In this document: one piece after another, positions 10,976 through 47,041 of the stretch | How the letters are laid out: each line of letters starts with the position of its first letter | Numbering within the stretch: the first letter of the stretch is position 1 | From: a virus | Lineage: Duplodnaviria; Heunggongvirae; Uroviricota; Caudoviricetes | Virus record (IMG/VR): IMGVR_UViG_3300032167_000073 | DNA length: 64,000 nucleotides | Strand: one strand, 5' to 3' | Made by a program: the position numbers and the translations under genes | Notes under the pieces: generated by a model | What the model saw: only the letters and a program-made list of their open reading frames with translations | What the model was told of the DNA's origin: nothing | The model's database searches: none

Positions 10976-11343
10976 GGAATGAAGCTATGTCCTATGCACT
11001 AAAGTCCCCGTATTATACGCAGGAACAGGTGGAGGCCATCTTGGGCGAATACGCCAAGTCCTGCGTTGCCCATATCGTTGTAAGTCCAAAGAATGTTCAG
11101 GTCGTTCTGCCCAAGGTCAACCGGATTCCCGTTCAGCGTCGTTTTGCGTCCCTGTTTGATCTCATGGAGATTGAGTACGAATGCGACAAAGCGCCGGATG
11201 GAACACAGCGCATGGTGATTGAGGGCGCATCTCCGATGATGGCCGAATTTTTAAAACGGTTTATCCAGCATGGCTATGTGCTCAGGATGGATCTAATGGA
11301 GGAAAGGAGAGGCAAAAATGGATTCTCAGGAAATGAATCTTAA
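10972..11343 (+). CDS. hypothetical protein (123 aa)
   Basis: ORF on + strand. Confidence 0.45.
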   Translation: MRNEAMSYALKSPYYTQEQVEAILGEYAKSCVAHIVVSPKNVQVVLPKVNRIPVQRRFASLFDLMEIEYECDKAPDGTQRMVIEGASPMMAEFLKRFIQHGYVLRMDLMEERRGKNGFSGNES

Positions 11344-12073
11344 TCCGCAGGAATATTTCGATGAGGTCAAGGAGCGTCGTCATAAGGTGGATGACGCGCA
11401 GCTCAAGGCCGTTTATGACAATTGCTTGGAGCTTTTGGCAAAGTATAAGGTTACAGGTCAGAAGTCCGGCATGCGCAAGCTGATGTTCCATCTCAAGTGT
11501 ATCGAGAAGGAGCGCGAGATCGTCGCCATGGGCATTGATACCTTTGTTTATCGTGACGATATTGAGTTCTATATTGACAAGGTGGCGCAAGATGTCGTCA
11601 AGATCATCGACATCGAAAGCTATGAGCGTGAGATCCCGGATGAAATCGTGGATATCATCGCCCGTGTGAAGGATAAGTTTGATCAGCTCTATATCGTCTT
11701 CACTGATTATACAGGTAAGGTTGAGCGTCAGGTCGAAAAGGAACGCCAGAAGAAAGATCCGATTCTCTTTGGCGCATTCCTCTCTGAGCGCGAGGGTGTT
11801 GTCGATGACAGGTTCTATTACCTTGGCGATTGGGAAGACGAGTATTGCGATCTCACGCTGGATAAGATGGTCAATGAAACCAAGAATGTTGGCAATCGCA
11901 ATATTGCTCATCGCATTTCTACGCCCAAGGATATCGAAGAGCTGAAGGAGCAGCTTGGCAGTCTGTCCGCATTGGAAAATTCAAGCAGATTCATGATTAC
12001 GACGAATGCCCAGCCGGAGAAGAAGGGCTTCTTTGCCAAAGTGAAAACCTTCCTCATGGGGTCTAAGTCGTGA
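11318..12073 (+). CDS. hypothetical protein (251 aa)
   Basis: ORF on + strand, acidic, coiled-coil-like. Confidence 0.5.
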   Translation: MDSQEMNLNPQEYFDEVKERRHKVDDAQLKAVYDNCLELLAKYKVTGQKSGMRKLMFHLKCIEKEREIVAMGIDTFVYRDDIEFYIDKVAQDVVKIIDIESYEREIPDEIVDIIARVKDKFDQLYIVFTDYTGKVERQVEKERQKKDPILFGAFLSEREGVVDDRFYYLGDWEDEYCDLTLDKMVNETKNVGNRNIAHRISTPKDIEELKEQLGSLSALENSSRFMITTNAQPEKKGFFAKVKTFLMGSKS

Positions 12074-12505: not shown

Positions 12506-12546
12506 AACCTTAGTCAAGAGAAACAATAACTTTGGAGGGGAAACAG

Positions 12547-13506
12547 ATGGCAGAACCGATGAAGCTTCATCCGTCTCAGGATGTTCCGGTCAGGGATAAC
12601 GTGCTGTATCTCCTGCCCAAGCAGGAAGAAAAGCCTGACAAGCTCCGCAAGGATGGAATGCCCAAAAAGATCTGCCAGAATAAGCAGAAGGGCAGGAAGT
12701 CCGAGGTTTACGCCTTTGAAGCGGAGGATATGAGGCACATGCTTCGTTTCTTCGCAGAGAAAGAGCAATGGATTCATTACTTACTCATGGTGCTGGGCTG
12801 CAATATGGCGCGTCGCGTTGGCGATACGCTCTCCCTGTCTTGGCTTCACTTCTTCAATCCGAAAACGGGCGAGTTGAGAAGCGACCTTCTGGAAATCGAA
12901 GAGGATAAGACGGATAAGCTTGCCAATCCAAGAATCAATTCTGCCTGCCGTGCAGCGATTGAATTGTATCTTGAAAAAACAGGCTGTGATCCCTCTGAGG
13001 ATGGGTATAAAAAGCCCGTCTTCCTGCAGCTCTCCGGCACGCATAAGGGAACCATCCTGACCGACGACGGCCACCGCAAGGCGATTAAAAAGGCTGCGCA
13101 GGCGCTTGGCATCACCTATAACGTAGGCACGCACAGCGCACGCAAAACATTCGGCATGACATCCAGAATGCTCCATCCCGGCGATTATGATTCCATGGAG
13201 CTTCTGCAAACGATCTATAATCACTCAGATACCAAAACGACTAAGCATTACATCGGCCTCACCAAGCAGAAGGTGAACGCATACTATGATGATATGGGCA
13301 GTTTCTTTGATGAGTATATCGTCGGAGATGGGCAGTACCAGATTGGCACGCAGTCGCCCATTGTCAGCCTCAATTCCTGCGATTTGAGGGATATCCTCAA
13401 AGCCGCTTATGAGGCGGGAAGACAGAACGCAGGTGAAGCGGATGCGATGGTGCATGTGGATGCAATCAATACGCTCCTTGATATGGTGGAGCAGTTATCA
13501 AAGTGA
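12547..13506 (+). CDS. tyrosine recombinase / phage integrase family protein
   Basis: box I ARRVGDTLSLSW, HSARKTFG (H-x-x-R) and C-terminal TKHYIG tyrosine motif; start after GGAGGGG RBS. Confidence 0.65.
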   Translation: MAEPMKLHPSQDVPVRDNVLYLLPKQEEKPDKLRKDGMPKKICQNKQKGRKSEVYAFEAEDMRHMLRFFAEKEQWIHYLLMVLGCNMARRVGDTLSLSWLHFFNPKTGELRSDLLEIEEDKTDKLANPRINSACRAAIELYLEKTGCDPSEDGYKKPVFLQLSGTHKGTILTDDGHRKAIKKAAQALGITYNVGTHSARKTFGMTSRMLHPGDYDSMELLQTIYNHSDTKTTKHYIGLTKQKVNAYYDDMGSFFDEYIVGDGQYQIGTQSPIVSLNSCDLRDILKAAYEAGRQNAGEADAMVHVDAINTLLDMVEQLSK

Positions 13507-17357: not shown

Positions 17358-17705
17358 ATGAACATGATGATGATCGTAGACCACGTATTTGGAACGGAAA
17401 GGCCGTACTTCTATGCGCTCATTGCAATCGGCGCAATCTCGTTGACTGTGCTTTTGCTGTATGCTTTCATGTGGAAACGCTGTGCATATAAGTCCGTTCG
17501 TGCTGCGCTCGTCGCGTGTTCTGCCGTCGTCGTTCTCCTCAATGGCATGCTTTGGTCGTGCTTCAAGCCGTCTCCTGTGAGCGCTGATATGACAAGAAGA
17601 GAGCTTGTTGAGCATATCGGTTCCATGACGTGCAGTGAGTTTAGTGCAAAGTATGATGTGGTCACTTACGATGGCGAATACTACCATCTTGTCGAAAGGA
17701 AGTAA
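17358..17705 (+). CDS. small membrane protein
   Basis: hydrophobic segments IAIGAISLTVLLLYAF / VACSAVVVLLNGML. Confidence 0.4.
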   Translation: MNMMMIVDHVFGTERPYFYALIAIGAISLTVLLLYAFMWKRCAYKSVRAALVACSAVVVLLNGMLWSCFKPSPVSADMTRRELVEHIGSMTCSEFSAKYDVVTYDGEYYHLVERK

Positions 17706-17709
17706 GCGT

Positions 17710-18024
17710 ATGGGCATGAAGATTTGGATAGATGATGTTCGTCCGGCTCCCGGCGATTGCTTTCATGAATGGCTCTGGTGCAGAAGCGTAGATACCGCTA
17801 AATGCGCTATCGAGGCAGCAGAAAAGAATGGAAAGGAAATCGATCTCATCGATCTTGACCACGACGCAGGCGATTACGCAGATCGCGGCGGCGATTACAT
17901 CAAACTCTTGGATTGGATGGTAGAAACCGAGCGCTTCTATCCGGTCAAGCTTCATACGATGAACCCTGTTGGCCGGGAGAGTATGCAGCGGATGATTGAC
18001 AGGTATTGGGGAGGCAAGAAATGA
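17710..18024 (+). CDS. receiver-fold (REC-like) small protein
   Basis: MKIWIDDVRP...IDLIDLDHDAG...HTMNPVG pattern typical of CheY-like/cyclic-phosphate-processing receiver domains. Confidence 0.4.
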   Translation: MGMKIWIDDVRPAPGDCFHEWLWCRSVDTAKCAIEAAEKNGKEIDLIDLDHDAGDYADRGGDYIKLLDWMVETERFYPVKLHTMNPVGRESMQRMIDRYWGGKK

Positions 18025-19443: not shown

Positions 19444-19470
19444 AAACCCTACTGAGTAGGGTTTCAAAAT
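19444..19470 (+). terminator. rho-independent terminator
   Basis: aaaccctactgagtagggttt perfect 9-bp stem followed by caaaat. Confidence 0.6.
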
Positions 19471-19597
19471 CGCAGAAATGCGTTCGGCCTACTTGAGAGG
19501 CCGCAACGTGAGGGACGCGACTGAATCACAAAGCATTCGACGGCGATCCACTCACGAAAAACTGTGTTACAACGGTTGCTGGGTAACTGGATTTGAG

Positions 19598-19880
19598 GTT
19601 TGACTAGTCTATTAGGTAACACAGTTACCAAGCAAGAGGAAGTCTTTGATTGCCACTCTCAGCGTTTGACTAGTCTATTAGGTAACACAGTTACCAAGCT
19701 TACTATGGCAGTTCTGGCCGTGCTTTGCGTTTGACTAGTCTATAAGGTAACACAGTTACCAAGCTGCTGATCAGTGATAATACCCTTGTTTCTTGTTTGA
19801 CTAGTCTACAAGGTTACACAGTTACCAAGCACTTTTGTGGATAGACTTTTGTGTCGAGGCGTTTGACTGGTCTATGAAAG
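19598..19880 (+). CRISPR. CRISPR array: 4 full 36-bp repeats + degenerate terminal repeat, 4 unique spacers (30, 29, 30, 30 bp)
   Basis: repeat GTTTGACTAGTCTATTAGGTAACACAGTTACCAAGC at 19598, 19664, 19729, 19795 (R4 variant); truncated GTTTGACTGGTCTATGAAAG at 19861; repeat carries hairpin GGTAAC-ACA-GTTACC near its 3' end. Confidence 0.85.
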
Positions 19881-19896
19881 ATAAATAAAGGAATAT

Positions 19897-21339
19897 ATGA
19901 AAAAGAACGAATTTGAAAATCAGAGTATTATTGTAAAGAAATTGACACTTTATCCGAAGGATGAAGTGGACAGGACATTTAAATATATCGATGATGCAAT
20001 GTGGTCGCAGAATCGCGCATATAATTACGCTGCATCTGTCGTCTATTCGGCTATTCAAAGTCGAAAAACAAAAGAAGAAATTAAGAGAATTTATGACCGT
20101 ATACAAAGAACTCCAAAGGAAGATGATCCTGAGTATAGTATCTTCCCGTATGATGAATTTAAATTTCCGGTTGGATTGGTTGTTCCAAGTACGGTTTGCC
20201 AAAGGCTTAAAAAGGATATGGCCGCAGCCATCAAAGCAGGTCTTCTAAAAGGCGAGCGTTCTTTGCAGAATCGCAAGCGCAATGCGCCGCTCTTGGTGGA
20301 AAGTCGATTCATGCAGTTTTCCCATAACTTTTCTTCTCATGAGGAGTTTAAGCAAAATCTTTTCACCAGCAAGTGCAAGATCGAAATGAAGTTTGTCAAT
20401 GGCATCGTATTTAATTGCGATATCGGTACGCCGGGAGCGAATTCCAGCGATCTGCGCATGACGTTTGAGCGTATTTTCGATGGAACTTATAAGGTGGTGC
20501 AGTCCTCTATCGGGTTCAGGGAAACCAAGCAGGCGCGTGATCCATCCGGCAAGGATAAGGATGCAAAGAAGAAGCGAGAAATCGTGCTCAATCTCACCTT
20601 GAAGATTCCAAAGCGCTCCTATGAGCTGGATGAGGAAACTGTTGTCGGCGTGGATCTTGGCGAGGCTGTACCCGCTGCTGTTGCGCTGAATAATAGCATA
20701 TACATGGGTAAAAAGAATCTGATTGGTGAAGACGATGACTTCCTCGATAAGCGCAAAGAGATTAAGGATAGGCACAAGCGTCTGCAAAAGCGCATGACGC
20801 TTGCCAAGGGCGGTCATGGCCGAAAGCGCAAGCTGGAGGGTTTGGATAGGCTGAAGGAGTACGAAAAACACTTTGCTGAAACGTATAATCACCATGTCAG
20901 CCGCGAGGTTATCCGCTTTGCGCTTGCCAATCGCGCCAAGTATATCCATATGGAGGATTTGTCAAGCTTCTCTGATGAGGATAAGAAGCGCCATATCCTG
21001 AAGGGCTGGTCGATCTACCAGTTGCAGCAGTTCATTTCCTATAAAGCGGAACAGGTCGGCATCACTGTCAGGTATGTCAATCCGGCCTATACTTCTCAAA
21101 ATTGCTCCTTCTGTGGTAGCGATAAACCCGGCCAGCGTATTTCTCAGGCGGAATTTGTTTGCAAGAATCCTCTGTGTCCGTCTCATGATTTTAAGCATGG
21201 CGTGAATGCAGACTTTAATGCCGCAAGAAATATTGCTCTGTCCGATAAGTTTATTGATCAAGAAGAGAAAAAGGCGAAGAAGCGCAAGAAGGGCAAGTCT
21301 CCTGAAAAGGTGGAAGAGGCAAATGATATGCCTTTCTAA
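19897..21339 (+). CDS. compact TnpB/Cas12-like RNA-guided nuclease (480 aa) adjacent to CRISPR array
   Basis: RuvC-I VVGVDLGEAVPAAVAL, RuvC-II IHMEDLSSF, zinc finger CSFCGS...CKNPLCPSHD, RuvC-III HGVNADFNAARNIA; lysine-rich C-terminus. Confidence 0.75.
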   Translation: MKKNEFENQSIIVKKLTLYPKDEVDRTFKYIDDAMWSQNRAYNYAASVVYSAIQSRKTKEEIKRIYDRIQRTPKEDDPEYSIFPYDEFKFPVGLVVPSTVCQRLKKDMAAAIKAGLLKGERSLQNRKRNAPLLVESRFMQFSHNFSSHEEFKQNLFTSKCKIEMKFVNGIVFNCDIGTPGANSSDLRMTFERIFDGTYKVVQSSIGFRETKQARDPSGKDKDAKKKREIVLNLTLKIPKRSYELDEETVVGVDLGEAVPAAVALNNSIYMGKKNLIGEDDDFLDKRKEIKDRHKRLQKRMTLAKGGHGRKRKLEGLDRLKEYEKHFAETYNHHVSREVIRFALANRAKYIHMEDLSSFSDEDKKRHILKGWSIYQLQQFISYKAEQVGITVRYVNPAYTSQNCSFCGSDKPGQRISQAEFVCKNPLCPSHDFKHGVNADFNAARNIALSDKFIDQEEKKAKKRKKGKSPEKVEEANDMPF

Positions 21340-21344: not shown

Positions 21345-21396
21345 TTAAAAATAAAGCAGAAAAAGTATTGACAAGAATGGCAAAATGCTATATACT
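21345..21396 (+). promoter_or_regulatory. conserved phage promoter module, class 1
   Basis: AAATAAAGCAGAAAAAGTATTGACA (21368-21373), N17, TATACT (21391-21396). Confidence 0.7.
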
Positions 21397-21442: not shown

Positions 21443-22063
21443 ATGAACGAAATCAATGTGATCAACAACGTCCCCGGCATCAGCGTAACCGTCAATAAGA
21501 ACGAGGACGGCAGCTTCGCCATCATGCTTGTCGAAAAGCAGAAGGGCAAGCAGCTTGGCTCCTTTGCGCGTGGCAGCGTCGTGAAGATTGGCAACCGCGA
21601 GTATATCATTCTCGATCATTCTCTTGAGACGACTGCCGTGATCGCCAAGGACTTCGTGAAGCAGATGGAATTCGGTTCTGACGGTAATTGGATTACCAGC
21701 AAGGTTCGCGCATATCTAGACACCACCTTCTATGATGAGCTTTGCAAGGCCGTTGGCAAGGAAAACATCATCACGCATACCGTGAAGCTGGAGGCGGACG
21801 ATGGTACGGGTAAGAGTGTAAAGTCTCAGGACAAGGTATCTCTGCTGACTACGGAGCAGTATCGCCGCTATCGTGAGTATCTTCCGGCCTATGGCAAGTG
21901 GTGGTGGCTGGCTACCCGTGTGAGCTATGATGTGAAGGATTATGCCCGCAGCGTCTGCTGCGTGGGCTCCTTCGGTGTTCTGGGCTGGGACGGCTGCGAC
22001 GGTGTGAGTGGCGGCGTGCGCCCGTTTTGCATCCTGAATTCTTCCGTCTTGGTATCTGAGTAA
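21443..22063 (+). CDS. DGR target protein (206 aa) with C-terminal variable region
   Basis: C-terminus ...WWWLATRVSYDV...CCVGSFGVLGWDGCDGVSGGVRPFCIL encoded by VR; start after AAAGGATAAAGAG RBS (ORF-track start 21206 reads through promoter). Confidence 0.65.
   Translation: MNEINVINNVPGISVTVNKNEDGSFAIMLVEKQKGKQLGSFARGSVVKIGNREYIILDHSLETTAVIAKDFVKQMEFGSDGNWITSKVRAYLDTTFYDELCKAVGKENIITHTVKLEADDGTGKSVKSQDKVSLLTTEQYRRYREYLPAYGKWWWLATRVSYDVKDYARSVCCVGSFGVLGWDGCDGVSGGVRPFCILNSSVLVSE
21946..22031 (+). repeat. DGR variable repeat (VR)
   Basis: aligns with TR at 22462-22549; ~15 mismatches at TR adenines, 1 elsewhere; identical GC-rich 3' end GGCGGCGTGCGCCCGTT (IMH-like). Confidence 0.75.
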
Positions 22064-22067
22064 AATC

Positions 22068-22433
22068 ATGGATGACGAACTCCGGTTTCATCTTGGAGAT
22101 AAGGCAGAAAAACTATACTTCTCTGTATTTGATGAAACCAACAACAGGAATCATTTCCCTGTAAAATTCAGGCGCTTGGCCGACCGTATGCAGGAATACG
22201 CACTTGATATTCATAGCGATCTTTTAGATGCAAATGCGTATCGAACCGATATTTCGTATCAGAAGGTCAAGCGTAACGAATTGCTCACCAGCGCAATAAC
22301 CAAGTGCAATAAGTTGATGAGCCTTGTAAAATACTGCGTCTATGCGCAACGGATTAGCTTTGCCCGCAGCGAAGAGTGGACAAAGCTGGTCAATGAAATC
22401 AAGTATATGTCCCTGTCTCTTCGCAGCAAATGA
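22068..22433 (+). CDS. avd: DGR accessory variability determinant (Avd-like, 121 aa)
   Basis: size, position between target and TR, helical bundle-like sequence with Avd/23S-IVS family pattern. Confidence 0.6.
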   Translation: MDDELRFHLGDKAEKLYFSVFDETNNRNHFPVKFRRLADRMQEYALDIHSDLLDANAYRTDISYQKVKRNELLTSAITKCNKLMSLVKYCVYAQRISFARSEEWTKLVNEIKYMSLSLRSK

Positions 22434-22461
22434 GAATTATTCCTTGGGCTATGCGCTGATG

Positions 22462-22549
22462 CGCCCGCAACGTCTGCAACGTGAACTCCAACGGTGTTCT
22501 GAACTGGAACTACTGCGACAATGAGAATGGCGGCGTGCGCCCGTTCTGG
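22462..22549 (+). repeat. DGR template repeat (TR)
   Basis: non-coding copy of VR located between avd and RT. Confidence 0.75.
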
Positions 22550-22653
22550 TGGATAAGCGAGGTCTGTAAATTGCTTGTGCAATTACGAGGAGTGCTCCAC
22601 ATCAAAAGAGCGCATAACCCTTCTCACGGCAACGTGGGATAAATACAAATGTT

Positions 22654-23748
22654 TTGATGACTGACTTTGAAAAGCTGACGGATTTTGAAAACCTGTATCG
22701 CGCCTATCGCTCGTCCATGAAGGGTAAGGGTAAGCGGAATAGCGCGGTAAAGTTCAGTGTCATGGCGCTGGAATACCTCTATGTCATGAAGCGCCAATTG
22801 ATTGCTCATACATATAAGGTCTCGCCTTATCAGGAGTTTATCATCTCTGAGCCGAAACGCAGAGTTGTCAAGTCCGGCGCTTTCAAAGATAAGGTTTTGC
22901 AGCATTGTCTTTGCGATCAAGTCCTGCTGCCTAAGATGAAGAATGTCTTCATCCTAGACAATTATGCGGGGCAGATTGGCAAAGGCACGCTGTTCGGCCT
23001 AGATCGGTTGTCGCAGAACATGCTTTCCTTTTATGGTGAGCATGGAACCAAAGGATATATTCTCAAATGTGATATCACGAAGTTCTTTTATAGCATCAAC
23101 CATGATGTGATGAAGCGCTGCGTCCGGCAGTATTTCGACGATCCGGGCATCCAGTGGATATGTGATTTGTTCATAGACAGCGTGGAGGGCGACGGCTTGC
23201 CGCTTGGCAATCAATCCAGTCAGGTCTTTGCGCTTATGTATCTGGATGGGATGGATCATTTCATCACCGAAGGGCTTGGCTGTAAATACTATGGAAGGTA
23301 TATGGATGATTTCTACCTGATATCGGATGATAGGGAGTATCTGAAAGAGTGCCTGAAAAGGATAAAGGTATATCTGGACGGTTTAAAGCTTTCTCTCAAT
23401 AATAAGACAGAAATCGTTCCAATGTCCAAAGGTATTCGCTTTCTTGGTTTCCATACGTATGTGACAACCGATGGCAAGGTGATCAGAAAACTCACAGGGG
23501 AAAATAAGCGTCAGATCAAAAAGCGCCTGAAAAAGTATGCCAAACTTGTCATCGATGGCCGGATGACCATGGAGAAGTTTGAAGAAACCTATCAGAGCTG
23601 GAAAAACCATGCTTCGCATGGAAACTGCTATCGTCTTCTGTGCAGCATGGATGAGTATGTGTCATCACTGTTTTCAGAAGTAAAAAAAGAATTTAAAAAT
23701 AAAGCGGAAAAAGTATTGACAGATCATTCTAAAGGTGGTAAAATATAG
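22654..23748 (+). CDS. DGR reverse transcriptase (364 aa)
   Basis: RT motifs incl. LGNQSSQVFALMYLDGMDH (DGR-specific SQ motif) and YGRYMDDFYLISDD (YxDD catalytic box). Confidence 0.85.
   Translation: MMTDFEKLTDFENLYRAYRSSMKGKGKRNSAVKFSVMALEYLYVMKRQLIAHTYKVSPYQEFIISEPKRRVVKSGAFKDKVLQHCLCDQVLLPKMKNVFILDNYAGQIGKGTLFGLDRLSQNMLSFYGEHGTKGYILKCDITKFFYSINHDVMKRCVRQYFDDPGIQWICDLFIDSVEGDGLPLGNQSSQVFALMYLDGMDHFITEGLGCKYYGRYMDDFYLISDDREYLKECLKRIKVYLDGLKLSLNNKTEIVPMSKGIRFLGFHTYVTTDGKVIRKLTGENKRQIKKRLKKYAKLVIDGRMTMEKFEETYQSWKNHASHGNCYRLLCSMDEYVSSLFSEVKKEFKNKAEKVLTDHSKGGKI
23696..23744 (+). promoter_or_regulatory. conserved phage promoter module, class 1 (embedded in 3' end of RT gene)
   Basis: AAAGCGGAAAAAGTATTGACA (23716-23721), N17, TAAAAT. 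Confidence 0.6.
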
Positions 23749-24354: not shown

Positions 24355-24429
24355 TGAGGGTTCGCCAAGCGGTAAGGCACGGGACTTTGACTCCCGTATC
24401 GTTAGGTTCGATTCCTACACCCTCAGCCA
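24355..24429 (+). tRNA. tRNA-Gln(TTG)
   Basis: cloverleaf: acceptor tgagggt/accctca, anticodon loop cTTTGac, T-loop ttcgatt, encoded CCA. Confidence 0.75.
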
Positions 24430-24721
24430 TTTGAAGCAAAGGACAATCGGGGAATGGCGTGATGTGGAGCACTCATGCATGCAGGTGTTCAGTCGATAAA
24501 GCATCTATCCGAATCTTGATATACGTTTGCTTCGATTTTCTGGCGATGGAGTATGCTGGTTCGATTCCAGCCTGACGGACTCAGGAGCTGCGGCAAGGAT
24601 GCAGCAACATCGCCGTTTTTTATACTGCGTTGGACAAAAGGTTAAGTCGCCGCTTATTTCTAGGCGGAGCTGCGGGTTCGATCCCCGTGCGCGGTTCAAT
24701 GTCAAATGAAACGAGGAACGT

Positions 24722-25102
24722 ATGAGGCATTTAGAAGCAGAGGATGTTGTCTGGTTTGTCAATCACAAGTGTGGCGAAATCGCCTACATGATCGACGAGG
24801 GAGATATCATCAGGATCTTCACCAAGGACAGCAAATGGATGATCTATAAGGATATCAATAGATGTTCGCAGGAGTACACGCTGTATCATAGCAGCTCGTC
24901 GAGCAATCACAAGCACTATCATGTGCAGATGACATCATTGCGTATGGATTATCTGATCTGGCGTGCATGCATCCATGATTACCCGGAAGCGCAGAAGAAG
25001 TTCGCTTCTTGGCCTCAGTTCCTTGCTTCGTTTGAGCTTTATCTTCTAGGCCGCGAGATCGCGGAGCGTGCATCGCTTTGGGATTTCGTTGTGGCGGATT
25101 GA
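24722..25102 (+). CDS. hypothetical protein (126 aa)
   Basis: ORF between tRNA genes. Confidence 0.45.
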   Translation: MRHLEAEDVVWFVNHKCGEIAYMIDEGDIIRIFTKDSKWMIYKDINRCSQEYTLYHSSSSSNHKHYHVQMTSLRMDYLIWRACIHDYPEAQKKFASWPQFLASFELYLLGREIAERASLWDFVVAD

Positions 25103-25106
25103 GCTT

Positions 25107-25183
25107 GCGCCATTAGCTCAGTCGGTACGAGCACGTGACTTTTAATCACGGAGTCCGGGGTTCGATCCCCCGATGGCGCACCA
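25107..25183 (+). tRNA. tRNA-Lys(TTT)
   Basis: acceptor gcgccat/atggcgc, anticodon loop cTTTTaa, T-arm cgggg-ttcgatc-ccccg, CCA. Confidence 0.8.
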
Positions 25184-25317
25184 AAGGCAGGTTACTGGTA
25201 AGATAGCCCTGTTCTCAACAAAAAGCCATCTTACAGGACGACAACCTTGCAGCGGCATCCACGATGGTGAGTAGTGGGTATTTGAAAGCTGAAACGATAT
25301 GCCGCAAAATAGTCTCT

Positions 25318-25392
25318 GCATCGATTAGCATAATGGCAGTGCCGATCCCTCCAAAGGATACGATTCTGGTTCGACTCCAGAGTGGATGCAGA
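25318..25392 (+). tRNA. tRNA-like element, possible tRNA-Trp(CCA), non-canonical
   Basis: T-loop ttcgact, anticodon-like loop ctCCAaa, imperfect acceptor/D arms; no encoded CCA. Confidence 0.3.
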
Positions 25393-25399
25393 TTTTCAT

Positions 25400-25476
25400 G
25401 GGGCTGTAGCTCAGATGGCTAGAGCGCCTGCCTTGCAAGCAGGAGGTCGAGGGTTCGATTCCCTTCAGCTCCACCA
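25400..25476 (+). tRNA. tRNA-Ala(TGC)
   Basis: acceptor ggggctg/cagctcc with G3:U70 Ala identity pair, anticodon loop cTTGCaa, CCA. Confidence 0.85.
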
Positions 25477-25587
25477 TCTATGCATTTATGCGTATAATAT
25501 ACGATCCATAATGCGCAAATATAGGCATGTATGGATAATATATGCGCTATTTATACACAATAAAACGAGCATTTTATGGGGTGATCA

Positions 25588-25828
25588 AGTGTCGAAAATC
25601 AAATCTTTTCTTCAAAGCATTCCGCCGGATATCCTTGGCAGTGCGATTGCCTTAATCATTCTGTTCTTTCTGACGTTTGGCATCAACATGGTCAACGAAG
25701 GAAAGTGGAACGAGGGTGTTTGCCCGGATTGCTATACAGGCTATATGCTGCGTGGCGTGAGGAAGGGTTACAGCCATTACGTTTGCAGCGAGTGTGGCGA
25801 TGAGATTATCCGCTACATGGAGTGGTGA
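25588..25828 (+). CDS. small membrane/zinc-ribbon protein
   Basis: TM segment then CPDCY...CSECGD; GTG start chosen because ORF-track ATG (25382) lies inside tRNA-Ala. Confidence 0.4.
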
Positions 25829-25830
25829 TC

Positions 25831-26106
25831 ATGGCGCACAGATGGAACAGTGAAAACTTGAAGCGCCAGTACGAATGGGTAAAAGAGACGGCCATCAAGC
25901 AGGGGTTTAATGCGGAGGATCTTGATCCGCCTTATCTGGATAAGCTCAGTCACAAAACCAAGTCAAAGCGTATTTTCAGCTTCATCAAGCTTGCTTACTT
26001 CCTTGGCTGGCTCCGTGGCATTGCCTATGTGGATGGTGGGCTTACGCCTGTGACGCTGGATAAATGGGAGAAATGTGTATGGGAGAAAAGAAGTTCAGCA
26101 AATTGA
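25831..26106 (+). CDS. hypothetical protein
   Basis: ORF on + strand. Confidence 0.4.
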   Translation: MAHRWNSENLKRQYEWVKETAIKQGFNAEDLDPPYLDKLSHKTKSKRIFSFIKLAYFLGWLRGIAYVDGGLTPVTLDKWEKCVWEKRSSAN

Positions 26107-26354
26107 TCGTGAAGATTCACACCAAAGTATTTGATGCGGATTCGATCATGAAGACGGCACAGCCAGTCATTGATTTTGCCAATCAGCATGATATCGCTCT
26201 AAGGCTTGAGCGGGATGCAGCAGGTCAAGTCCTTGCCACCAGTATGGCGGAAGGATATACGAGCGCTTATTGCAAGGGTGCCGTTCAGGAGATCAAGGAA
26301 ATGCTCAAGCGTGCGTTTTCTTGCAAGGTCGAGGTACTTTTGTACGCATATTGA
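26079..26354 (+). CDS. hypothetical protein
   Basis: ORF on + strand. Confidence 0.4.
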   Translation: MGEKKFSKLIVKIHTKVFDADSIMKTAQPVIDFANQHDIALRLERDAAGQVLATSMAEGYTSAYCKGAVQEIKEMLKRAFSCKVEVLLYAY

Positions 26355-26375
26355 TGAAAAAAGGAGAAAAAGAAA

Positions 26376-26663
26376 ATGGGTATGATGAATAAGAAGAAGA
26401 CAACCGAGCAAGTCATTTCTGCGGCCACTACCAAGATTTCAGATGACGTCGCTCATCTGAACCTGATGCGCGAGAATGCCGTCAGGACGTTTAGACAGAC
26501 TGCGCAGAGCTTGCAGGCCAATAACGAGGAGCTTCAGGCTTCCGTTGAGCGCTTTACCATTCTGGAAAACTTCGCAAAGGGTAAGCGAGAAGAGTGTGTC
26601 CGCGCAATCGAGGACAATAACAAGGTTCGTGAAAAGATTCTGGAGATTATCGGCGAGGAGTAA
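26376..26663 (+). CDS. hypothetical coiled-coil protein (95 aa)
   Basis: AAAGGAG RBS; heptad-like charged sequence. Confidence 0.5.
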   Translation: MGMMNKKKTTEQVISAATTKISDDVAHLNLMRENAVRTFRQTAQSLQANNEELQASVERFTILENFAKGKREECVRAIEDNNKVREKILEIIGEE

Positions 26664-26700
26664 AATCCTGCCTATACAAATAGGAAGGAACAGGTGAAGT

Positions 26701-27006
26701 ATGGAAAACACCGTTAAGGGAACTCGACTGAAAACGGAGCTGTGCGCCCATCTTCTGTCTGTGCGCAGCGTTGCAAACGATGAGCAAAAGCATGCTCTTG
26801 ATGTTGCAGTTCGCGTAATCGACGAGATTGATAAGTACGCTTCTAAGCACGATCTTGCGTTGAGCTGCGGCGGAGAGTGGATGTATCAAAGCGACATGGG
26901 TCAGGTTGATGCGCTTGCGCTGGTATCCAAGATTCTTGATCGCCTGTCTGAGTACGCCGAAGATGATGAAGACGATGAAGAGTGGAGTGAAGACGATGAT
27001 GAGTAA
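26701..27006 (+). CDS. small protein with poly-acidic C-terminus (DNA-mimic candidate)
   Basis: C-terminus EYAEDDEDDEEWSEDDDE. Confidence 0.5.
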   Translation: MENTVKGTRLKTELCAHLLSVRSVANDEQKHALDVAVRVIDEIDKYASKHDLALSCGGEWMYQSDMGQVDALALVSKILDRLSEYAEDDEDDEEWSEDDDE

Positions 27007-29263
27007 TCCGGCCATTGTGATTAACGAAATTGTTCTGCGCCGAAGAAATAAGCTCACCATTCCTGAGCGCCACGCTGGGTTCTACAATCCAGACCGTGCC
27101 AATCTAGTGCTTGCCATGGCGAAGAATGTGGAGTCGTTAGGTTTTGCATTCTCCATGGATACGGCGACTCGTCTGCTGTATTACAACGACAAAGAGCTGG
27201 AAGACTTCTATAAGCAGCTCATTCCAATGCTCAAGAAGTTGGTCGGCGCGGATGTGGAGTATCATCCGATGTATCCGAACTTCCCACAGCAGGTTATCGA
27301 TGCGCCTCTGATCGAGCTGTTCTTCAATGCGCTCATGCATTACGTGACGGATGGCGAGTATCTGCCGGAATACGTTAAGGAAGAGCGTCTTCCTATGCTT
27401 GATACGTGCAAGGCGAAAATTCTGACGCTTGCCGATGAAAACGGTGCAGACCTGATGGATATCTTCTCCAATCTTCTTAGAAGCAAGACTTCTCTGTCTG
27501 AGCAGGATAAAGCAGATGTGGAATGGATTGTTTTAAACAATGTCAGCCATGTCAAGCATATGCCGGAAGAGATTCCGCTCAAGGAGAATGTGGCGTTCAT
27601 TTCAAAGCTCATTATCGAAAAGTCGCCGCTAAAGTCGTCCAAGTGCATCGAGCGGTATTTCTCCACGGCGACGGATGTTCTTCGACTCATCGTTTCCATG
27701 TCTGATGGCGATATCAGCTTGGCTGATAAAACGAAGTTCAGGTCGCTCAAGAGATCGGAGCGCCGGATGATTCTGGATCTCCTTGCGCATTGCGGGGATA
27801 TTTACGAAGACCTCTTCCGCTATCGTGATGAGTGGATTCGCGTTGCAGAAATCCTGCATGTCGGAGAATATGTCGGTAAACCGAAATATCGCGGCGTATG
27901 CGATTATTTCAGGTCGCTTAGAAACGATAAAAAGCCGCTTCTCTATCCGGGCTATGTGGAAACCATGATCGCCAAGGGCGATATGGTCGGGGCAGCTAAT
28001 CTCCTGATGGAGCGTCCCGGCGAGTTTGCACGCAGGCTCGATAAGCTCATCCGCGATACGGATTGGCAAAAGGATATTGTGGACATGTTTGAAAAGGTTG
28101 CAGATCGTGTGGCCGTCCCGGTTCTTTTGCAGGTTCGTCAGCATTTCCTTGCTCGTCATAAGAACGATGCGCCCATTCGTGTCTTCTTCCCGAAGGGCAG
28201 CGTAGCGCATGCCATCGTTGAGCCAAATGAACTCAAACCCATCGACTACGAAATTTGCAGGCGCGTTGTCATGATCTGCAATAATGCAATCATCGCGCAG
28301 TTTAAAAAGGATAAGCCGGAGATGGGCAGGGTTTATGTCGATCCTGAGCTGGAAAACTTCATGGTTCCGTTCAGCCAGCGCAGCGCGTCCAGCGGCAGCA
28401 AGATCATGGTTCGTGGTAGCTCAATCCCGATCAGCAAGGATGCAAAGTTTGTCCGTGCGTTCATCTGGTGGACAAATACGGATAAGCAGATCAAGGATGA
28501 AGATTTGAATTATTGGCGCGGTGATGAAAACCGCGTAGATATCGATCTTTCTGCCTGTATTCTCGATGAGGATTTCAAGTATGTATCCCATGTATCCTAT
28601 ACCAATCTGCGTTCCGGCTGTATGGCCGTTCATTCCGGCGATATTGTCGATGGCGGAAGCGTAAAGGGTAAGGGCGTAGCAGAATTTCTCGACATCAATA
28701 TTGATGAGGCTGCAAAGCATGGCCGTTATGTCTGCTTCCAAGTGTATAGCTTCACGCAGCAGCCGTTCTCGTCTATGCCAAATAGCCGATTCGGTTGGAT
28801 GGAGAGGGAGAGCCAGAATTCCGGCGAAATCTTTGAGCCGCGCACGGTAGAGATGTGTATGAATGTGTCCTCTGACAGCAAGGTTTCCATTCCAGTCATC
28901 TTTGACTGCAAGGAGAAGCGATTTGTCTGGTTGGATATGTGCCTGTCTATCGACAGCTTTGCTTCCAGCAGAGGCAATAACATTGAAAACAACTTCTCTC
29001 AGGTTCAGGCCATCTGTTATGCCATGATGCATCTCAACAAGCCCAATCTGTATGATCTGATTGCGCTCAATGCAAAAGCAAGAGGAACAATCACGGACAA
29101 CCGCAACGAAGCGGATATCATTTTCAGCAATGACACGACCAAGCCCATCGAATGTGTGATGGTGGAAGGTTCTGAGCATCAGCTTGAAATGGTGAACCGT
29201 GAAAAGGACACACCAATCATTACGGCCTTTGACATGGATTACATCATGGGTAATCTGCTGTAA
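26996..29263 (+). CDS. large protein (755 aa) with C-terminal TerD-like domain
   Basis: VDIDLSACILDEDFKYVSHVSYTNLRSGCMAVHSGDIVDGGSVKGKGVAEFLDINIDE...YVCFQVYSF matches TerD/TelA calcium-binding beta-sandwich consensus (DLDLSA..fD......v.f.nl.....hsGDn.tG.g.gdDE.I..dL). Confidence 0.55.
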   Translation: MMSNPAIVINEIVLRRRNKLTIPERHAGFYNPDRANLVLAMAKNVESLGFAFSMDTATRLLYYNDKELEDFYKQLIPMLKKLVGADVEYHPMYPNFPQQVIDAPLIELFFNALMHYVTDGEYLPEYVKEERLPMLDTCKAKILTLADENGADLMDIFSNLLRSKTSLSEQDKADVEWIVLNNVSHVKHMPEEIPLKENVAFISKLIIEKSPLKSSKCIERYFSTATDVLRLIVSMSDGDISLADKTKFRSLKRSERRMILDLLAHCGDIYEDLFRYRDEWIRVAEILHVGEYVGKPKYRGVCDYFRSLRNDKKPLLYPGYVETMIAKGDMVGAANLLMERPGEFARRLDKLIRDTDWQKDIVDMFEKVADRVAVPVLLQVRQHFLARHKNDAPIRVFFPKGSVAHAIVEPNELKPIDYEICRRVVMICNNAIIAQFKKDKPEMGRVYVDPELENFMVPFSQRSASSGSKIMVRGSSIPISKDAKFVRAFIWWTNTDKQIKDEDLNYWRGDENRVDIDLSACILDEDFKYVSHVSYTNLRSGCMAVHSGDIVDGGSVKGKGVAEFLDINIDEAAKHGRYVCFQVYSFTQQPFSSMPNSRFGWMERESQNSGEIFEPRTVEMCMNVSSDSKVSIPVIFDCKEKRFVWLDMCLSIDSFASSRGNNIENNFSQVQAICYAMMHLNKPNLYDLIALNAKARGTITDNRNEADIIFSNDTTKPIECVMVEGSEHQLEMVNREKDTPIITAFDMDYIMGNLL

Positions 29264-29432
29264 GGTTGTGTGTCAGCCTCCGGGCGTTCGCCCTTCATAT
29301 AGACGGGGATTTCCCCAAATTTCGGCTGTGTCGTCCATCCTTCTTTCTAATTCTATACAGTGAGTGCTTTGCAGCTAAAAGCTGCGAAGTGTTCATAACA
29401 ACAAGACCGGGTGACAGATTTCCGAAATTTCT

Positions 29433-29482
29433 AAAAATAAATCAGAAAAAGTATTGACAGATACAATCTGATGATGTATAAT
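29433..29482 (+). promoter_or_regulatory. conserved phage promoter module, class 1, driving the tRNA cluster
   Basis: AAATAAATCAGAAAAAGTATTGACA (29454-29459), N17, TATAAT (29477-29482). Confidence 0.7.
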
Positions 29483-29544
29483 GTAAGAGCAGTGAGGCCA
29501 AAGGAATAAAGCCGGAGGATAATCTGCAATGTTGGCTGGATGCT

Positions 29545-29660
29545 TCATCCTTCTTCGCTTTGGGAGCTGCGTGTCGCAGGTTCGAGTCCTGCACCGCTGG
29601 CGTGTGCTGGCGGTTAGCTCAGTCGGTAGAGCAACAGATAGAAACGAGGCAGCGATTTCC
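29545..29660 (+). pseudogene. tRNA fragments (isolated T-arm/acceptor half and 5' half with D-arm)
   Basis: gcaggttcgagtcctgcaccgctggcg and gctggcggttagctcagtcggtagagcaac lack partner halves. Confidence 0.3.
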
Positions 29661-29780
29661 AACATTTACATATAAGATTCGCATGATTCGGCTGAAAGGT
29701 TCATCCTTCTAACTAGGTATATTTTGAAGATTTCTAAGCAGAGCCTTTGATTTCCGATGATTGCGAATCTACTTCCCTAA

Positions 29781-29810
29781 AAAACCAAAGCAGAAAAAGT
29801 ATAAACACAT
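29781..29810 (+). promoter_or_regulatory. conserved promoter module, class 2, immediately upstream of tRNA-Leu
   Basis: AAAAACCAAAGCAGAAAAAGTATAAACAC. Confidence 0.5.
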
Positions 29811-29813
29811 CTT

Positions 29814-29896
29814 GCGGGTGTGGCGGAATGGCAGACGCGGCAGATTTAGGATCTGTTGCCAAAAGCGTATGGGTTCAAATCCCTTCACCCGCACCA
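29814..29896 (+). tRNA. tRNA-Leu(TAG)
   Basis: acceptor gcgggtg/cacccgc, anticodon loop tTTAGga, long variable arm, CCA. Confidence 0.75.
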
Positions 29897-29899
29897 AAC

Positions 29900-29987
29900 G
29901 GCGAGTTGTCCGAGTGGTTTATGGTGATGGTTTGCTAAACCATTGGCGGGAAACCGCCCACAGGTTCAAATCCTGTACTCGCCGCCA
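29900..29987 (+). tRNA. tRNA-Ser(GCT)
   Basis: acceptor ggcgagt/actcgcc, anticodon loop tGCTaaa, long variable arm, CCA. Confidence 0.8.
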
Positions 29988-29996
29988 TTTTCCCAA

Positions 29997-30073
29997 TGAT
30001 CTTTAGCTCAGTTGGTCAGAGCAAGTGACTCATAATCACTAAGTCTAGGGTTCAAGCCCCTAAAGATCAACCA
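29997..30073 (+). tRNA. tRNA-Met(CAT)
   Basis: acceptor tgatctt/aagatca, anticodon loop ctCATaa, T-loop ttcaagc, CCA. Confidence 0.75.
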
Positions 30074-30077
30074 TCTC

Positions 30078-30162
30078 GCCGACGTGACGGAATTGGCAAA
30101 CGGAGCGGACTTAAAATCCGCTGCTATCAAGCTTGTGGGTTCAAGTCCCATCGTCGGCACCA
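30078..30162 (+). tRNA. tRNA-Leu(TAA)
   Basis: acceptor gccgacg/cgtcggc, anticodon loop cTTAAaa, long variable arm, CCA. Confidence 0.8.
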
Positions 30163-30169
30163 TTTATAT

Positions 30170-30246
30170 TGCGGAGTAGAGAAGTGGTCATCTCGTCAGC
30201 CTCATGAGCTGAAGATCGCTGGTTCGAATCCAGCCTCTCGCAACCA
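30170..30246 (+). tRNA. tRNA with CAT anticodon (second Met, fMet or Ile2-lysidine type)
   Basis: anticodon arm tcagc-ctCATga-gctga, T-loop ttcgaat, CCA; acceptor with one mismatch. Confidence 0.6.
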
Positions 30247-30251
30247 TCTAT

Positions 30252-30328
30252 CTGGGTGTAGCTCAGTTTGGTAGAGCGCGTGCTTTGGGAGCATGAAGTC
30301 GGGGGTTCGAATCCCTTCACTCAGACCA
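30252..30328 (+). tRNA. tRNA-Pro(TGG)
   Basis: acceptor ctgggtg/cactcag, anticodon loop tTTGGga, CCA. Confidence 0.75.
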
Positions 30329-30331
30329 TTT

Positions 30332-30405
30332 GCAGCAGTAGTTTACTGGTAAAATAGGAGACTTCCACTCTTCGGAAACGGGTTCGATTCCCGCCTGCTG
30401 CACCA
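30332..30405 (+). tRNA. tRNA-Gly(TCC)
   Basis: acceptor gcagcag/ctgctgc, anticodon loop cTTCCac, CCA. Confidence 0.75.
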
Positions 30406-30987
30406 ACGCGCCCTGTCTGCCGCTCAGTGGCGCATGAATAAGTAAGATCAAGCGGCGGTGTCCAGACATCACAATAATCCGAAAGAGATGCCGGGCTCAG
30501 GGAACCGGAGTGGCGGGATGGAGCCGATAAACCCATTCCAGTGCTGGGACGTATGACCTCAGATAGTTGGCGGACAACGAAAAAATCTGGAATTTGCTCG
30601 ATCTGGCTGCGAGTAAGATCAGCGTCTGATTGGCGATTTATGCCGACGGACAGCAGATTGAGGCTTGCAGAGAATTGCGGATGCTGCTGCATGTGTGTCT
30701 GCGAGGGCGAAAGCTTCAATATATGATGCGATACAGGACTAACCAGATCATGACACCGTATCGAATCCACCACAGGATCTTAATGGATGAATCGGATACG
30801 ACGCATGCAGGGCGTTGTGGTGAAAAGTTCCGAGGGTAAACATGGATTGCCTCTTGTCGTGTGGCAGAGGAGGGCAAAGAACGAGGCGTGGGCGAAGTCG
30901 ATCTCTGATCATCATGTCGAAGCTTCGCGTGTATGCGGCAGGCCAAGTTGCAATCCTTGTTTACTTGTAAATCAGTTTTGTTTATTT

Positions 30988-31063
30988 GCTGGCGTAGCTC
31001 AATTGGCAGAGCAGCGGATTTGTAATCCGCAGGTTGTGGGTTCGACTCCCTTCGCCAGCTCCA
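30988..31063 (+). tRNA. tRNA-Thr(TGT)
   Basis: acceptor gctggcg/cgccagc, anticodon loop tTTGTaa, CCA. Confidence 0.8.
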
Positions 31064-31356
31064 GAAATAAATAACATCGGAGGTACACATTATGGCATTC
31101 ATCGAATCAGTCAAGGCGCGAATCAATCTGCTTGAGCAGCGCGATCCCGTTGTCAATGCGCGAATCATTGGCAAGCTGAAGCGAAAGCTGAGGAAGCTTG
31201 AAGCTCTGGAAGCGGTGACGTGCGAATGAACGATTTTGCAATCGCATGCGCAATGGTTACCGGAGTGGTTGCCCTTGCGTGCATGGTCAATCGATTCTTT
31301 CCATCTGATTATCACAAGCAGATCGAAGAAAAGTACAAAGGAGAGTAAGTAGTCAT

Positions 31357-31542
31357 ATGCCTGTGTTCTGGTTTCTGGCATTTCTTGGGCTGATTGTCCT
31401 ATGGTTCCTTCTCGCATTTGCGTATAAGGCAATCGGCAGATTCTTTAAGCGGATATTCAAGGATTCCTACGATGCTATGACGTCGGAAGATCCAAAGGAT
31501 ATATCAATCACAAACGAAAATGACGGAGGTAAAGAAGAATGA
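31357..31542 (+). CDS. small membrane protein (61 aa)
   Basis: hydrophobic N-terminus MPVFWFLAFLGLIVLWFLLAF. Confidence 0.45.
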   Translation: MPVFWFLAFLGLIVLWFLLAFAYKAIGRFFKRIFKDSYDAMTSEDPKDISITNENDGGKEE

Positions 31543-32471: not shown

Positions 32472-32490
32472 TCTTCCACATAGACACTTG

Positions 32491-32512
32491 CCCGCTTCCC
32501 CTGCGGGCATTT
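32491..32512 (+). terminator. rho-independent terminator
   Basis: gcccgcttcccctgcgggc hairpin + atttc. Confidence 0.4.
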
Positions 32513-32516
32513 CACG

Positions 32517-32606: not shown

Positions 32607-32613
32607 TTTCTTG

Positions 32614-47040: not shown

Positions 47041-47041
47041 C

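Follow-up and report, generated by a model that had tools for sequence, protein, structure and literature searches.

A predicted tracrRNA-dependent Cas12f1 cassette in a phage genome, with a scaffold-encoding region upstream of its CRISPR array

The IMG/VR virus record IMGVR_UViG_3300032167_000073 (Caudoviricetes), analysed here as a stretch of 64,000 nucleotides (hereafter the window), carries in a phage-like genome a CRISPR array followed by a 480-amino-acid (aa) open reading frame (ORF) with RuvC and zinc-finger motifs, together at positions 19598-21339. From the sequence we conclude that the region 19485-19570, upstream of the array, encodes a scaffold resembling a trans-activating CRISPR RNA (tracrRNA), and that the system depends on a tracrRNA, as do those of its relatives that have been characterised; the ORF is identified by sequence and modelled fold as Cas12f1 of the V-F1/V-U3 branch, with intact RuvC catalytic residues. 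The locus is thus read as a tracrRNA-dependent Cas12f1 cassette used by the phage against other mobile DNA, a reading that we hold with high confidence as to molecular identity and with less confidence as to biological target. A preliminary description of the same DNA had proposed a phage-borne type V CRISPR-Cas system whose miniature effector resembles TnpB and which has no adaptation genes nearby, and this core of it is supported.

Identification of the effector as Cas12f1

Among the PADLOC profiles, the 480-aa protein matched Cas12u3 (E=1e-99, residues 15-458) and Cas12f (E=2e-95, almost full length), and its Pfam match was Cas12f1-like_TNB. The phmmer search against PDB gave 8HR5 (E=3e-70), 9NZP (5e-68) and 9NZO/9NZR (1e-56), which correspond to CnCas12f1, RhCas12f and Al3Cas12f, respectively (NSMB, 2026), followed by AsCas12f, OsCas12f, SpCas12f1 and Un1Cas12f1. 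When an AlphaFold2 model of the protein (predicted local distance difference test score, pLDDT, 80.4) was used as the Foldseek query, the top 23 matches were all Cas12f, with CnCas12f1 at E=6e-32 and template modelling (TM) scores of 0.66/0.68, while TnpB, Cas12k, Cas12p, CasX, Cas12m, CasLambda and CasPi followed far below. No Cas12j was present in the top 50 Foldseek matches, the Cas12j profile reached E=0.014, and the TM scores for CasLambda (8DC2) were 0.34/0.26.

The three RuvC motifs pointed out in the preliminary description are present, represented by D253 in GVDLG (20653-20655), E353 in HMEDL (20953-20955) and D439 in NADFNAARN (21211-21213). In a comparison with 23 homologues, D253 and E353 were conserved in at least 90%, and D439 was conserved in all, together with C403, C406 and C422 of the TNB zinc finger. 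This finger had been written as CxxC...CxxC; the first pair, C403/C406, agrees with that pattern, but the second, C422/C427, is of the Cx4C type. A lysine-rich insertion of low pLDDT was observed at about residues 205-225.

Cas12f1 comprises Cas14a and V-U3 (Karvelis et al. 2020, PMC7229846). In that study, five V-U3 proteins of 422-497 aa were characterised; the family is found mainly in Clostridia and Bacilli, and Cas12f1 loci include a putative tracrRNA-encoding region, the double-stranded DNA (dsDNA) being cut beside a T- or C-rich protospacer-adjacent motif (PAM) on the 5′ side (PMC7229846). Since the window protein falls inside Cas12f1 by profile, sequence and fold, the structural and profile comparison that had been proposed for it does not bear out a new miniature Cas12 subtype or a transitional form. 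Its size, described as smaller than almost all known effectors, lies within the range of characterised V-U3-branch Cas12f1 proteins (415-497 aa). The lack of adaptation genes was correctly noted, but V-U3 is by definition without them (PMC7229846; PMC10691335); small size and missing adaptation genes are therefore family traits and not novelties. No Cas1 was found among 90 plus-strand ORFs of the window, and no Cas2 or Cas4 among the matches listed in the profile search. A PADLOC match to 'Cas1_IIIb' was rejected, as it is the reverse transcriptase (RT) of a diversity-generating retroelement (DGR) aligning to the RT half of an RT-Cas1 profile.

A tracrRNA-like scaffold upstream of the array

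The predicted scaffold was recognised by complementarity, fold and covariation (Table 1). It is complementary to the 3′ 18 nucleotides (nt) of the repeat, forming an 11-bp repeat:anti-repeat duplex and a 4-bp pseudoknot adjoining the spacer, and this is the architecture known from solved Cas12f guide RNAs; in the Cas12f single-guide RNA (sgRNA) a pseudoknot (R:AR-1) adjoins the guide and a second repeat:anti-repeat stem (R:AR-2) is present (PMC10097598). A chimeric scaffold-GAAA-repeat RNA folded at -48.8 kcal/mol (z=-7.0). In the natural plus-strand transcript the same stems were kept, with the anti-repeat pairing in cis with repeat 1, and the cis fold was stronger for the plus strand (z=-2.5) than for the minus strand (z=-1.4); the scaffold helices contain many G-U pairs and are therefore compatible with plus-strand transcription only. 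The scaffold motif occurs once in the window, upstream of the array, and no copy is located downstream of cas12f. The 130-nt stretch that had been taken as a leader does precede the array, but is not just a leader, as it holds the predicted scaffold. An Rfam scan of the locus gave sub-threshold chance matches only.

Table 1. Features of the predicted Cas12f1 cassette and its upstream boundary (coordinates in the window).
Feature	Position	Strand	Remarks
Hairpin AAACCCTAC-TGA-GTAGGGTTT	19444-19464	+	3′ of folD and a small ORF; read from sequence
tracrRNA-like scaffold (predicted)	19485-19570	+	complementarity, fold, covariation
Stem 1	19485-19490 with 19498-19503	+	
Pseudoknot	19492-19495 with repeat nt 32-35	+	stem-1 loop CUUG with CAAG
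Stem 2	19508-19515 with 19547-19555	+	GUGAGGGA with UCCACUCAC; GUGAGGG/CCACUCAC stem
Anti-repeat AACUGUGUUAC	19560-19570 with repeat nt 19-29	+	11-bp duplex
Variable linker	19571-19597	+	ends in leader-repeat junction TTTGAG, 19592-19597
CRISPR repeat 1, GTTTGACTAGTCTATTAGGTAACACAGTTACCAAGC	19598-19633	+	36 nt
Spacer 1	19634-19663	+	30 nt
CRISPR repeat 2	19664-19699	+	36 nt
Spacer 2	19700-19728	+	29 nt
CRISPR repeat 3	19729-19764	+	36 nt; 1 substitution
Spacer 3	19765-19794	+	30 nt
CRISPR repeat 4	19795-19830	+	36 nt; 3 substitutions
Spacer 4	19831-19860	+	30 nt
Truncated fifth repeat GTTTGACTGGTCTAT	19861-19875	+	21 nt 5′ of cas12f ATG
Shine-Dalgarno-like AAAGGA for cas12f	19887-19892	+	read from sequence
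cas12f1 (V-F1/V-U3 branch)	19897-21339	+	480 aa; profile, sequence and fold matches

The region upstream of the array is conserved in relatives. Loci were surveyed by contig look-ups, by an IMG/VR scan (125 stretches encoding relatives) and in species-representative genomes (individual loci are given below as L numbers), and a search for arrays behind a TTTGAG-like junction yielded 91 unique modules consisting of leader and first repeat. All share one layout, in which the stem-1 hairpin comes first, followed by GUGAG(G)...CACUCAC, an A-rich linker, the anti-repeat, a variable stretch and TTTGAG. The last motif (rarely TTGAG or TTCGAG) stands directly 5′ of the first repeat in the 91 modules, a universality that is partly by construction because the modules were collected by that junction, and it was never found before internal repeats. 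It could mark the junction of leader and repeat as a signal, either for processing or for the integration of spacers. Leader and repeat were more complementary in cognate than in permuted pairs, both in the pseudoknot segment (5.10 nt versus 4.09 +/- 0.14) and in the anti-repeat (8.04 nt versus 6.08 +/- 0.14), and the observed values were reached in none of 200 permutations.

For the covariation analysis, 27 non-redundant chimeras (scaffold plus GAAA plus the last 20 nt of the repeat) were aligned with MAFFT from sequence only. The level of pairing was 93.8% for stem 1 (compensatory changes at 5 of 6 pairs), 96.3% for the pseudoknot (3 of 5), 94.4% for stem 2 (4 of 8) and 84.8% for the repeat:anti-repeat duplex (8 of 11). 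For the four helices together, 91.1% were paired as against 73.7% after shuffling (reached in 0 of 500), with 20 of the 30 pairs compensatory, and sliding of the 3′ partners reduced pairing to 31-44%, the covariation score being 0.506 as against 0.184; these controls overstate the significance somewhat, because the helices were first drawn from the same sequences and the modules are mutually related. In three '...AAAGG' modules the register of the pseudoknot is offset by one base; these modules were kept and count against the model.

A second scaffold subtype ('...TGCCAAAAGTGAG...'; L052:4513, L054:4504, L076:4507, L082:4507 and similar) was excluded from the covariation analysis, as neither a stem 1 nor a partner for the pseudoknot could be assigned in it. 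It has no compact stem 1 and carries, 3′ of the anti-repeat, a GTTTTG complementary to the repeat end, which implies that the pseudoknot partner may have moved.

The scaffold was also compared with published guides. In a MAFFT alignment including the Rh and MG119 guides, which was poor over the variable stem 2 and informative for the 5′ module only, the validated RhCas12f guide starts with CGGCUGAUUUAGCAGCCGAAGUCUGAG and the phage module L009 reads CGGCUGAUUUGGCAGCCGAAGUGUGAG, with 25 of 27 positions identical within the 5′ module. In the RhCas12f guide the loop AUUUA complements the end of its own repeat, UAAAU, and thus follows the same rule of loop and repeat end.

The preliminary description had placed the guide handle elsewhere, in the repeat hairpin GGTAAC-ACA-GTTACC, as expected for a new tracr-independent miniature Cas12 subtype of the Cas12a/Cas12j kind. 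Repeats 1-3 do contain this hairpin (-6.0 kcal/mol), at a distance of 4 nt from the spacer, and phage-borne tracr-independent effectors, Cas12j and CasLambda, are known from the literature. The hairpin is, however, no better than that of shuffled sequences (z=-0.86), is broken in repeat 4, and has been lost from the repeats of the closest relatives (AATAAC...GTTACC in L001 and AATAAC...GTCACC in L004), and its nucleotides, in the 3′ half of the repeat, covary with the upstream anti-repeat. Taken together with the protein, which is Cas12f1 by every measure given above and distant from both Cas12j and CasLambda, this makes a crRNA-only system (crRNA, CRISPR RNA) very improbable.

Organisation of the array and the cassette

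The four 36-nt repeats, the four unique 29-30-nt spacers, the truncated fifth repeat and the 480-aa ORF were all confirmed, the spacers reading exactly as first quoted. The repeats are spaced at start-to-start distances of 66/65/66, the window contains 4 occurrences of the 3′ half of the repeat, where 100 shuffles gave an expectation of 0, and Tandem Repeats Finder detected this as the sole tandem array in the window. The last repeat had been described as slightly variant; repeat 4 indeed varies, but so does repeat 3. Of the substitutions of repeat 4, one lies inside the segment pairing with the anti-repeat; one breaks the GGTAAC/GTTACC hairpin. The truncated fifth repeat retains the 5′ half only, the part that would not be kept in mature crRNA, without the part that would pair with tracrRNA, and runs straight into the ribosome-binding site of cas12f. 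The same design of a truncated terminal repeat was found in L001, L005 and L006.

Scaffold, array and cas12f are all on the plus strand, and no promoter-like site was detected by the promoter scan between the array and the ATG of cas12f, where space for a promoter of its own is lacking, which suggests that the three are carried on one transcript. The upstream boundary of the cassette is likely the hairpin at 19444-19464, which is terminator-like without a T-run and was not called in the terminator scan of the locus; a comparable hairpin is present 5′ of the second scaffold copy in L001.

As described earlier, the cassette lies between folD (Pfam THF_DHG_CYH) with a 32-aa ORF on the upstream side and the DGR genes on the downstream side, the latter recognised by mismatches between variable repeat (VR) and template repeat (TR) that fall on TR adenines; no adaptation genes were found in the immediate neighbourhood, which consists of folD, small ORFs and the DGR. 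The phage-like character of the surroundings is indicated by the orientation of all large ORFs on one strand, by 16 tRNA genes, and by PHROG matches in the window to a clamp-like processivity factor, Bro-N/Ant, NAMPT, NAD synthetase, RNA ligase, polynucleotide kinase (PNK) and a Sak-like annealing protein.

This layout also bears on the view that the locus is a mobile TnpB element of the IS200/IS605 or IS607 type, that landed in the phage, its repeats being related to the insertion sequence (IS) or to omega-RNA and not a CRISPR array. Such a view could draw on NCBIfam guided_TnpB, which the effector matches above cutoff (156 bits against 100), on the PHROG label 'transposase' for the effector family and the annotation of many homologues as IS605 OrfB, and on another PHROG 'transposase' ORF at 11318-12070. 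That ORF, however, is without a Pfam transposase domain and lies 7.8 kb off, and no TnpA stands beside the effector gene, whose neighbours are folD, the 32-aa ORF and the DGR genes. The scaffold motif is missing from the omega-RNA position 3′ of cas12f, where a strong promoter for the next gene is situated instead (a near-consensus sigma-70-type promoter, TTGACA-17-TATACT, 11/12, at 21368-21396, before the DGR target gene). Furthermore, cas12f is single-copy in the window, the context is the same on the three copies examined (window, L214 and L215) and the other contigs group as having mostly the same neighbour genes, and the array units are regularly spaced with unique spacers and show polarised turnover in relatives. 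We therefore consider the transposon reading the least probable of those weighed here, and retain that of a CRISPR-associated Cas12f1.

Relatives, array turnover and multi-module loci

Relatives of the effector were found on more than 125 IMG/VR viral contigs, often with several modules of tracrRNA and mini-array, and most of the related loci also carry arrays. The exact effector protein is present on at least 24 contigs, mostly of 50-200 kb; the two contigs examined came from two different samples, and one contig matches the window over 5.4 kb with 100% identity. L215 is 99.6% identical to the window and has the same four spacers, and all 16 of the 16 differences between the two fall in the DGR variable region (21950-22008), indicating that the DGR is actively diversifying in this population whereas the array is static. 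At a larger distance spacers do change: L006 (97% identical) has a different last spacer (spacer 4), and L001 and L002, whose effectors are identical, have the leader-distal spacer in common but not the leader-proximal ones, a pattern that usually marks polarised acquisition. Separately, in related phages, a spacer at L029:2766 and those at L030:2811 / L028:2847 derive from the same sequence on opposite strands, with a 4-nt offset and 26 nt in common, which suggests independent acquisitions from one target region.

The close relatives of the window array were all found through protein look-ups. At the DNA level, a metagenome scan with the 3′ half of the repeat gave 57 single chance matches and no arrays, searches of the 8-kb neighbourhood and of the array against INPHARED phages gave nothing relevant, and tblastn against GenBank phages detected only a distant TnpB-like gene of a Bacillus phage.

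The family arrays counted (117 in total) hold 1-5 spacers each, mostly of 30 nt, and nearly half of them (55 of 117) are single-spacer arrays, which in this respect resemble omega-RNA units. In L053:2608-5484, five modules of tracrRNA and mini-array surround one cas12f gene, with the loop/repeat-end pairs ATTTTG/CAAAAC, ATTTCG/CGAAAC, ACTTTG/CAAAGC, ATTTCG/CGAAAC and ATTTCA/TGAAAC; L068, L054, L056 and L081 are also multi-module loci. This organisation, in which each mini-array has its own co-evolving scaffold and one effector may serve several 'codes', may be under-described. As a tentative extension, to which we give a minor share of confidence, the tracrRNA may be fused to the leader of every mini-array so as to form portable scaffold-array cassettes, with pseudoknot and anti-repeat co-evolving with their own repeat; these would be intermediates between CRISPR and omega-RNA arrays, would furnish cis single guides for the first spacer, and would gain leader-proximal spacers without a phage Cas1-Cas2.

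Targets and PAM

Search for targets of the window spacers in phage databases, as had been proposed, gave no match for any of the four. After pooled BLAST of 168 family spacers against INPHARED, one hit was obtained, for a spacer of L046 (L046:2533), which matches six 'Ca. Heliusvirales' phages at 29 of 29 positions and two more with one mismatch. The matched phages come from human faeces and are phages of Lachnospiraceae, Agathobacter, Coprococcus and Dorea. The protospacer (PV036410.1 48529-48557 and seven related records) is a conserved, intergenic and partly palindromic sequence, GTGCAGACTTTTTGCAC, and its 5′ flank on the spacer-sense strand, ...AATAATTTTT, presents TTTTT next to the protospacer, which fits a 5′ T-rich PAM and the crRNA polarity deduced here. 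The 7.3-kb locus of L046 had no DNA-level match to any deposited phage, including its targets. As judged from this sequence match, the L046 protospacer points to inter-phage conflict.

The same Cas12f1 might do another job, with its spacers directed against the host chromosome, host defence loci or plasmids (takeover or counter-defence), or with a role in gene regulation. No phage target was found for the four window spacers, there are documented CRISPR systems of phages directed at host defence (PMC11656645), and V-F spacers in general match both phages and plasmids (PMC10691335). On the other hand, the sole target identified in the family is a phage, and the apparently intact catalytic residues of the nuclease argue against purely regulatory binding. 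We regard such another role as unlikely, though far less so than the two molecular alternatives discussed above, and prefer competition with other mobile DNA.

Other features of the phage genome

The DGR downstream of the cassette (21443-23748) is complete and consists of a DUF6273 target gene with a C-terminal VR (about 21944-22028), a 121-aa accessory ORF, the TR (about 22463-22547) and the RT gene (22654-23748), and all of its VR/TR mismatches are on TR adenines. A tyrosine recombinase of the Phage_integrase family (Pfam E=7e-10) is encoded at 12532-13503, so the designation of the phage as virulent is not established; the phage may be temperate, as judged from this gene, or the recombinase may serve another purpose. 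In L001 an integrase is located about 5 kb 5′ of its arrays. The PHROG 'transposase' match of the ORF at 11318-12070 has E=1e-97, with no Pfam domain.

The 16 tRNA genes form a block at 24355-32892, all on the plus strand with small ORFs between them, including one odd two-base anticodon call. Metabolic ORFs include a phosphoadenosine phosphosulfate (PAPS) reductase-like gene (44943-45878), NAMPT (50997-52514) and NAD synthetase (52944-53780), and RNA-repair ORFs include RNA ligase (56941-58293), a PNK-like kinase (58274-59302) and a tRNA-His guanylyltransferase-like gene (60248-61162); a ribose-phosphate pyrophosphokinase match was also obtained within about 45000-61200, with no ORF assigned. 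By their sequence matches, the genes of this region together suggest NAD+ salvage and tRNA repair, possibly for counter-defence. An ORF with a cREC_REC (cyclic-phosphate processing receiver) domain is found at 17635-18021, two genes 5′ of folD.

Discussion

On the findings described above, a mode of action may be proposed for the cassette, whose scaffold (19485-19570), array (19598-19875) and cas12f1 (19897-21339) probably form a self-contained V-F1 (V-U3 branch) unit on a large uncultivated phage. By analogy with the family, processing of the pre-crRNA would leave about 18 nt of the repeat together with the spacer, a Cas12f homodimer would bind the duplex of tracrRNA and crRNA, and the complex would find dsDNA with a 5′ T-rich PAM and cut it with the single RuvC site. 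Pairing of the scaffold with repeat 1 in cis may also make a natural single guide for spacer 1. The role would be to cut rival phages, or mobile DNA of other kinds, within a shared host, which is probably a bacterium of the Clostridia/Lachnospiraceae type from gut or rumen, and new spacers would be gained only rarely, through host adaptation proteins acting in trans or through recombination.

Several points weigh against this proposal. Neither the tracrRNA nor the array was assigned a promoter in the sigma-70 scan. The four window spacers had no target in the window (up to 7 mismatches), in the surveyed loci or in INPHARED, and no exact 22-nt seed match in IMG/VR, and the array is invariant across the contigs of this phage population. 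The PAM is deduced from one protospacer, that of a relative of about 40% identity, in an AT-rich intergenic region; binding as an asymmetric homodimer on one guide RNA is assumed from solved homologues; and the drawing of the helices from the tested sequences inflates the contrast with the slid controls, the modules being in addition phylogenetically related.

The closest systems in both sequence and fold are CnCas12f1 of Clostridium novyi (8HR5) and RhCas12f of Ruminiclostridium herbifermentans (9NZP), of V-F1, formerly V-U3, with about 31-35% identity in structure-based alignments, coverage of nearly the full length (residues 36-462 and 12-458) and TM scores of 0.66-0.68. The window system resembles those of CnCas12f1 (497 aa) and RhCas12f (415 aa) in the RuvC domain and TNB zinc finger, in size, in the lack of adaptation genes, and in a predicted tracrRNA with stem 1, a GAGGG...CCACUC stem, pseudoknot and anti-repeat. 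It differs in being phage-borne and not on a Clostridia chromosome, in the lysine-rich insertion of the effector, and in an array of 4 spacers as against 8-22 repeats in the Clostridium loci; also unusual is the position of array and tracrRNA 5′ of the effector gene and abutting it, as conserved arrays associated with Cas12 nearly always lie 3′ of the effector gene (PMC10691335). The window scaffold, like that of Al3Cas12f, has no counterpart of the 'stem 4' hairpin found in the Rh guide. The Al3Cas12f/MG119 family (9NZO/9NZR) matches over the C-terminal 280 residues (E=1e-56) with a divergent N-terminal half, and shares with the window effector the CKNPxC zinc-finger variant; its compact guide leads from CCACUC through a short A-rich linker directly into the anti-repeat. 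The source of Al3Cas12f is a metagenomic contig with proteins classified as Alistipes sp., and is not phage-like.

Cas12j/CasPhi, CasLambda, Cas12p and the viral effectors near V-F1/V-U3 are likewise phage-borne, without an adaptation module, with small arrays and a presumed role in conflict between mobile genetic elements. Cas12j and CasLambda (700-800 aa) use crRNA only and are structurally distant from the window effector. Cas12p ('hacker', V-P) is a protein of 500-700 aa, TrxA-dependent and with a GTN PAM; membership of the window effector in this group was rejected, as 9JFS matched at E=3.8e-5 over 80 residues only and the Foldseek TM scores were 0.43/0.39. The viral V-F1/V-U3-like effectors have so far been described at survey level only, without analysis of guide RNA. 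ISDra2 TnpB with its omega-RNA has the same core fold (Foldseek E=5e-12) and a scaffold and pseudoknot directly 5′ of the guide, as here, and when scaffold, repeat 1 and spacer 1 are folded in cis the result is similar to a natural single guide. ISDra2 TnpB is, however, a transposon-encoded monomer with one guide set by the transposon end, whereas the window has guides in a repeat-spacer array, a separate upstream scaffold and no transposase.

The effector, the adjacent array, the predicted tracrRNA architecture and the lack of adaptation genes are among the features by which V-F1/V-U3 is defined, and all four are found here. Surveys have reported that compact type V effectors are enriched in phages, that there are viral effectors close to V-F1/V-U3, and that phages bearing CRISPR generally lack adaptation genes (PMC12607003; PMC11656645), and the Cas12f1 neighbourhood is already known for fusions of tracrRNA with half-repeats and for omega-RNA arrays (PMC10691335). 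Given these precedents, the locus belongs to the known Cas12f1 family and is not a new CRISPR type.

For practical use of the 480-aa nuclease the upstream scaffold is needed, and a crRNA-only design built on the hairpin of the repeat would most likely not work. The natural scaffold/repeat pairs, about 90 in number and matched in their pseudoknot 'codes', form a ready set that could inform guide-RNA engineering. For the biology of the family, the computational evidence at the level of guide RNA indicates that Cas12f1 (V-U3) is widespread in large uncultivated phages in the form of compact cassettes of tracrRNA and array, with or without the effector, and the one identified target belongs to a phage group of human-gut Lachnospiraceae. 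Such cassettes would offer a tractable system for phage-versus-phage CRISPR warfare and for spacer acquisition without adaptation genes.

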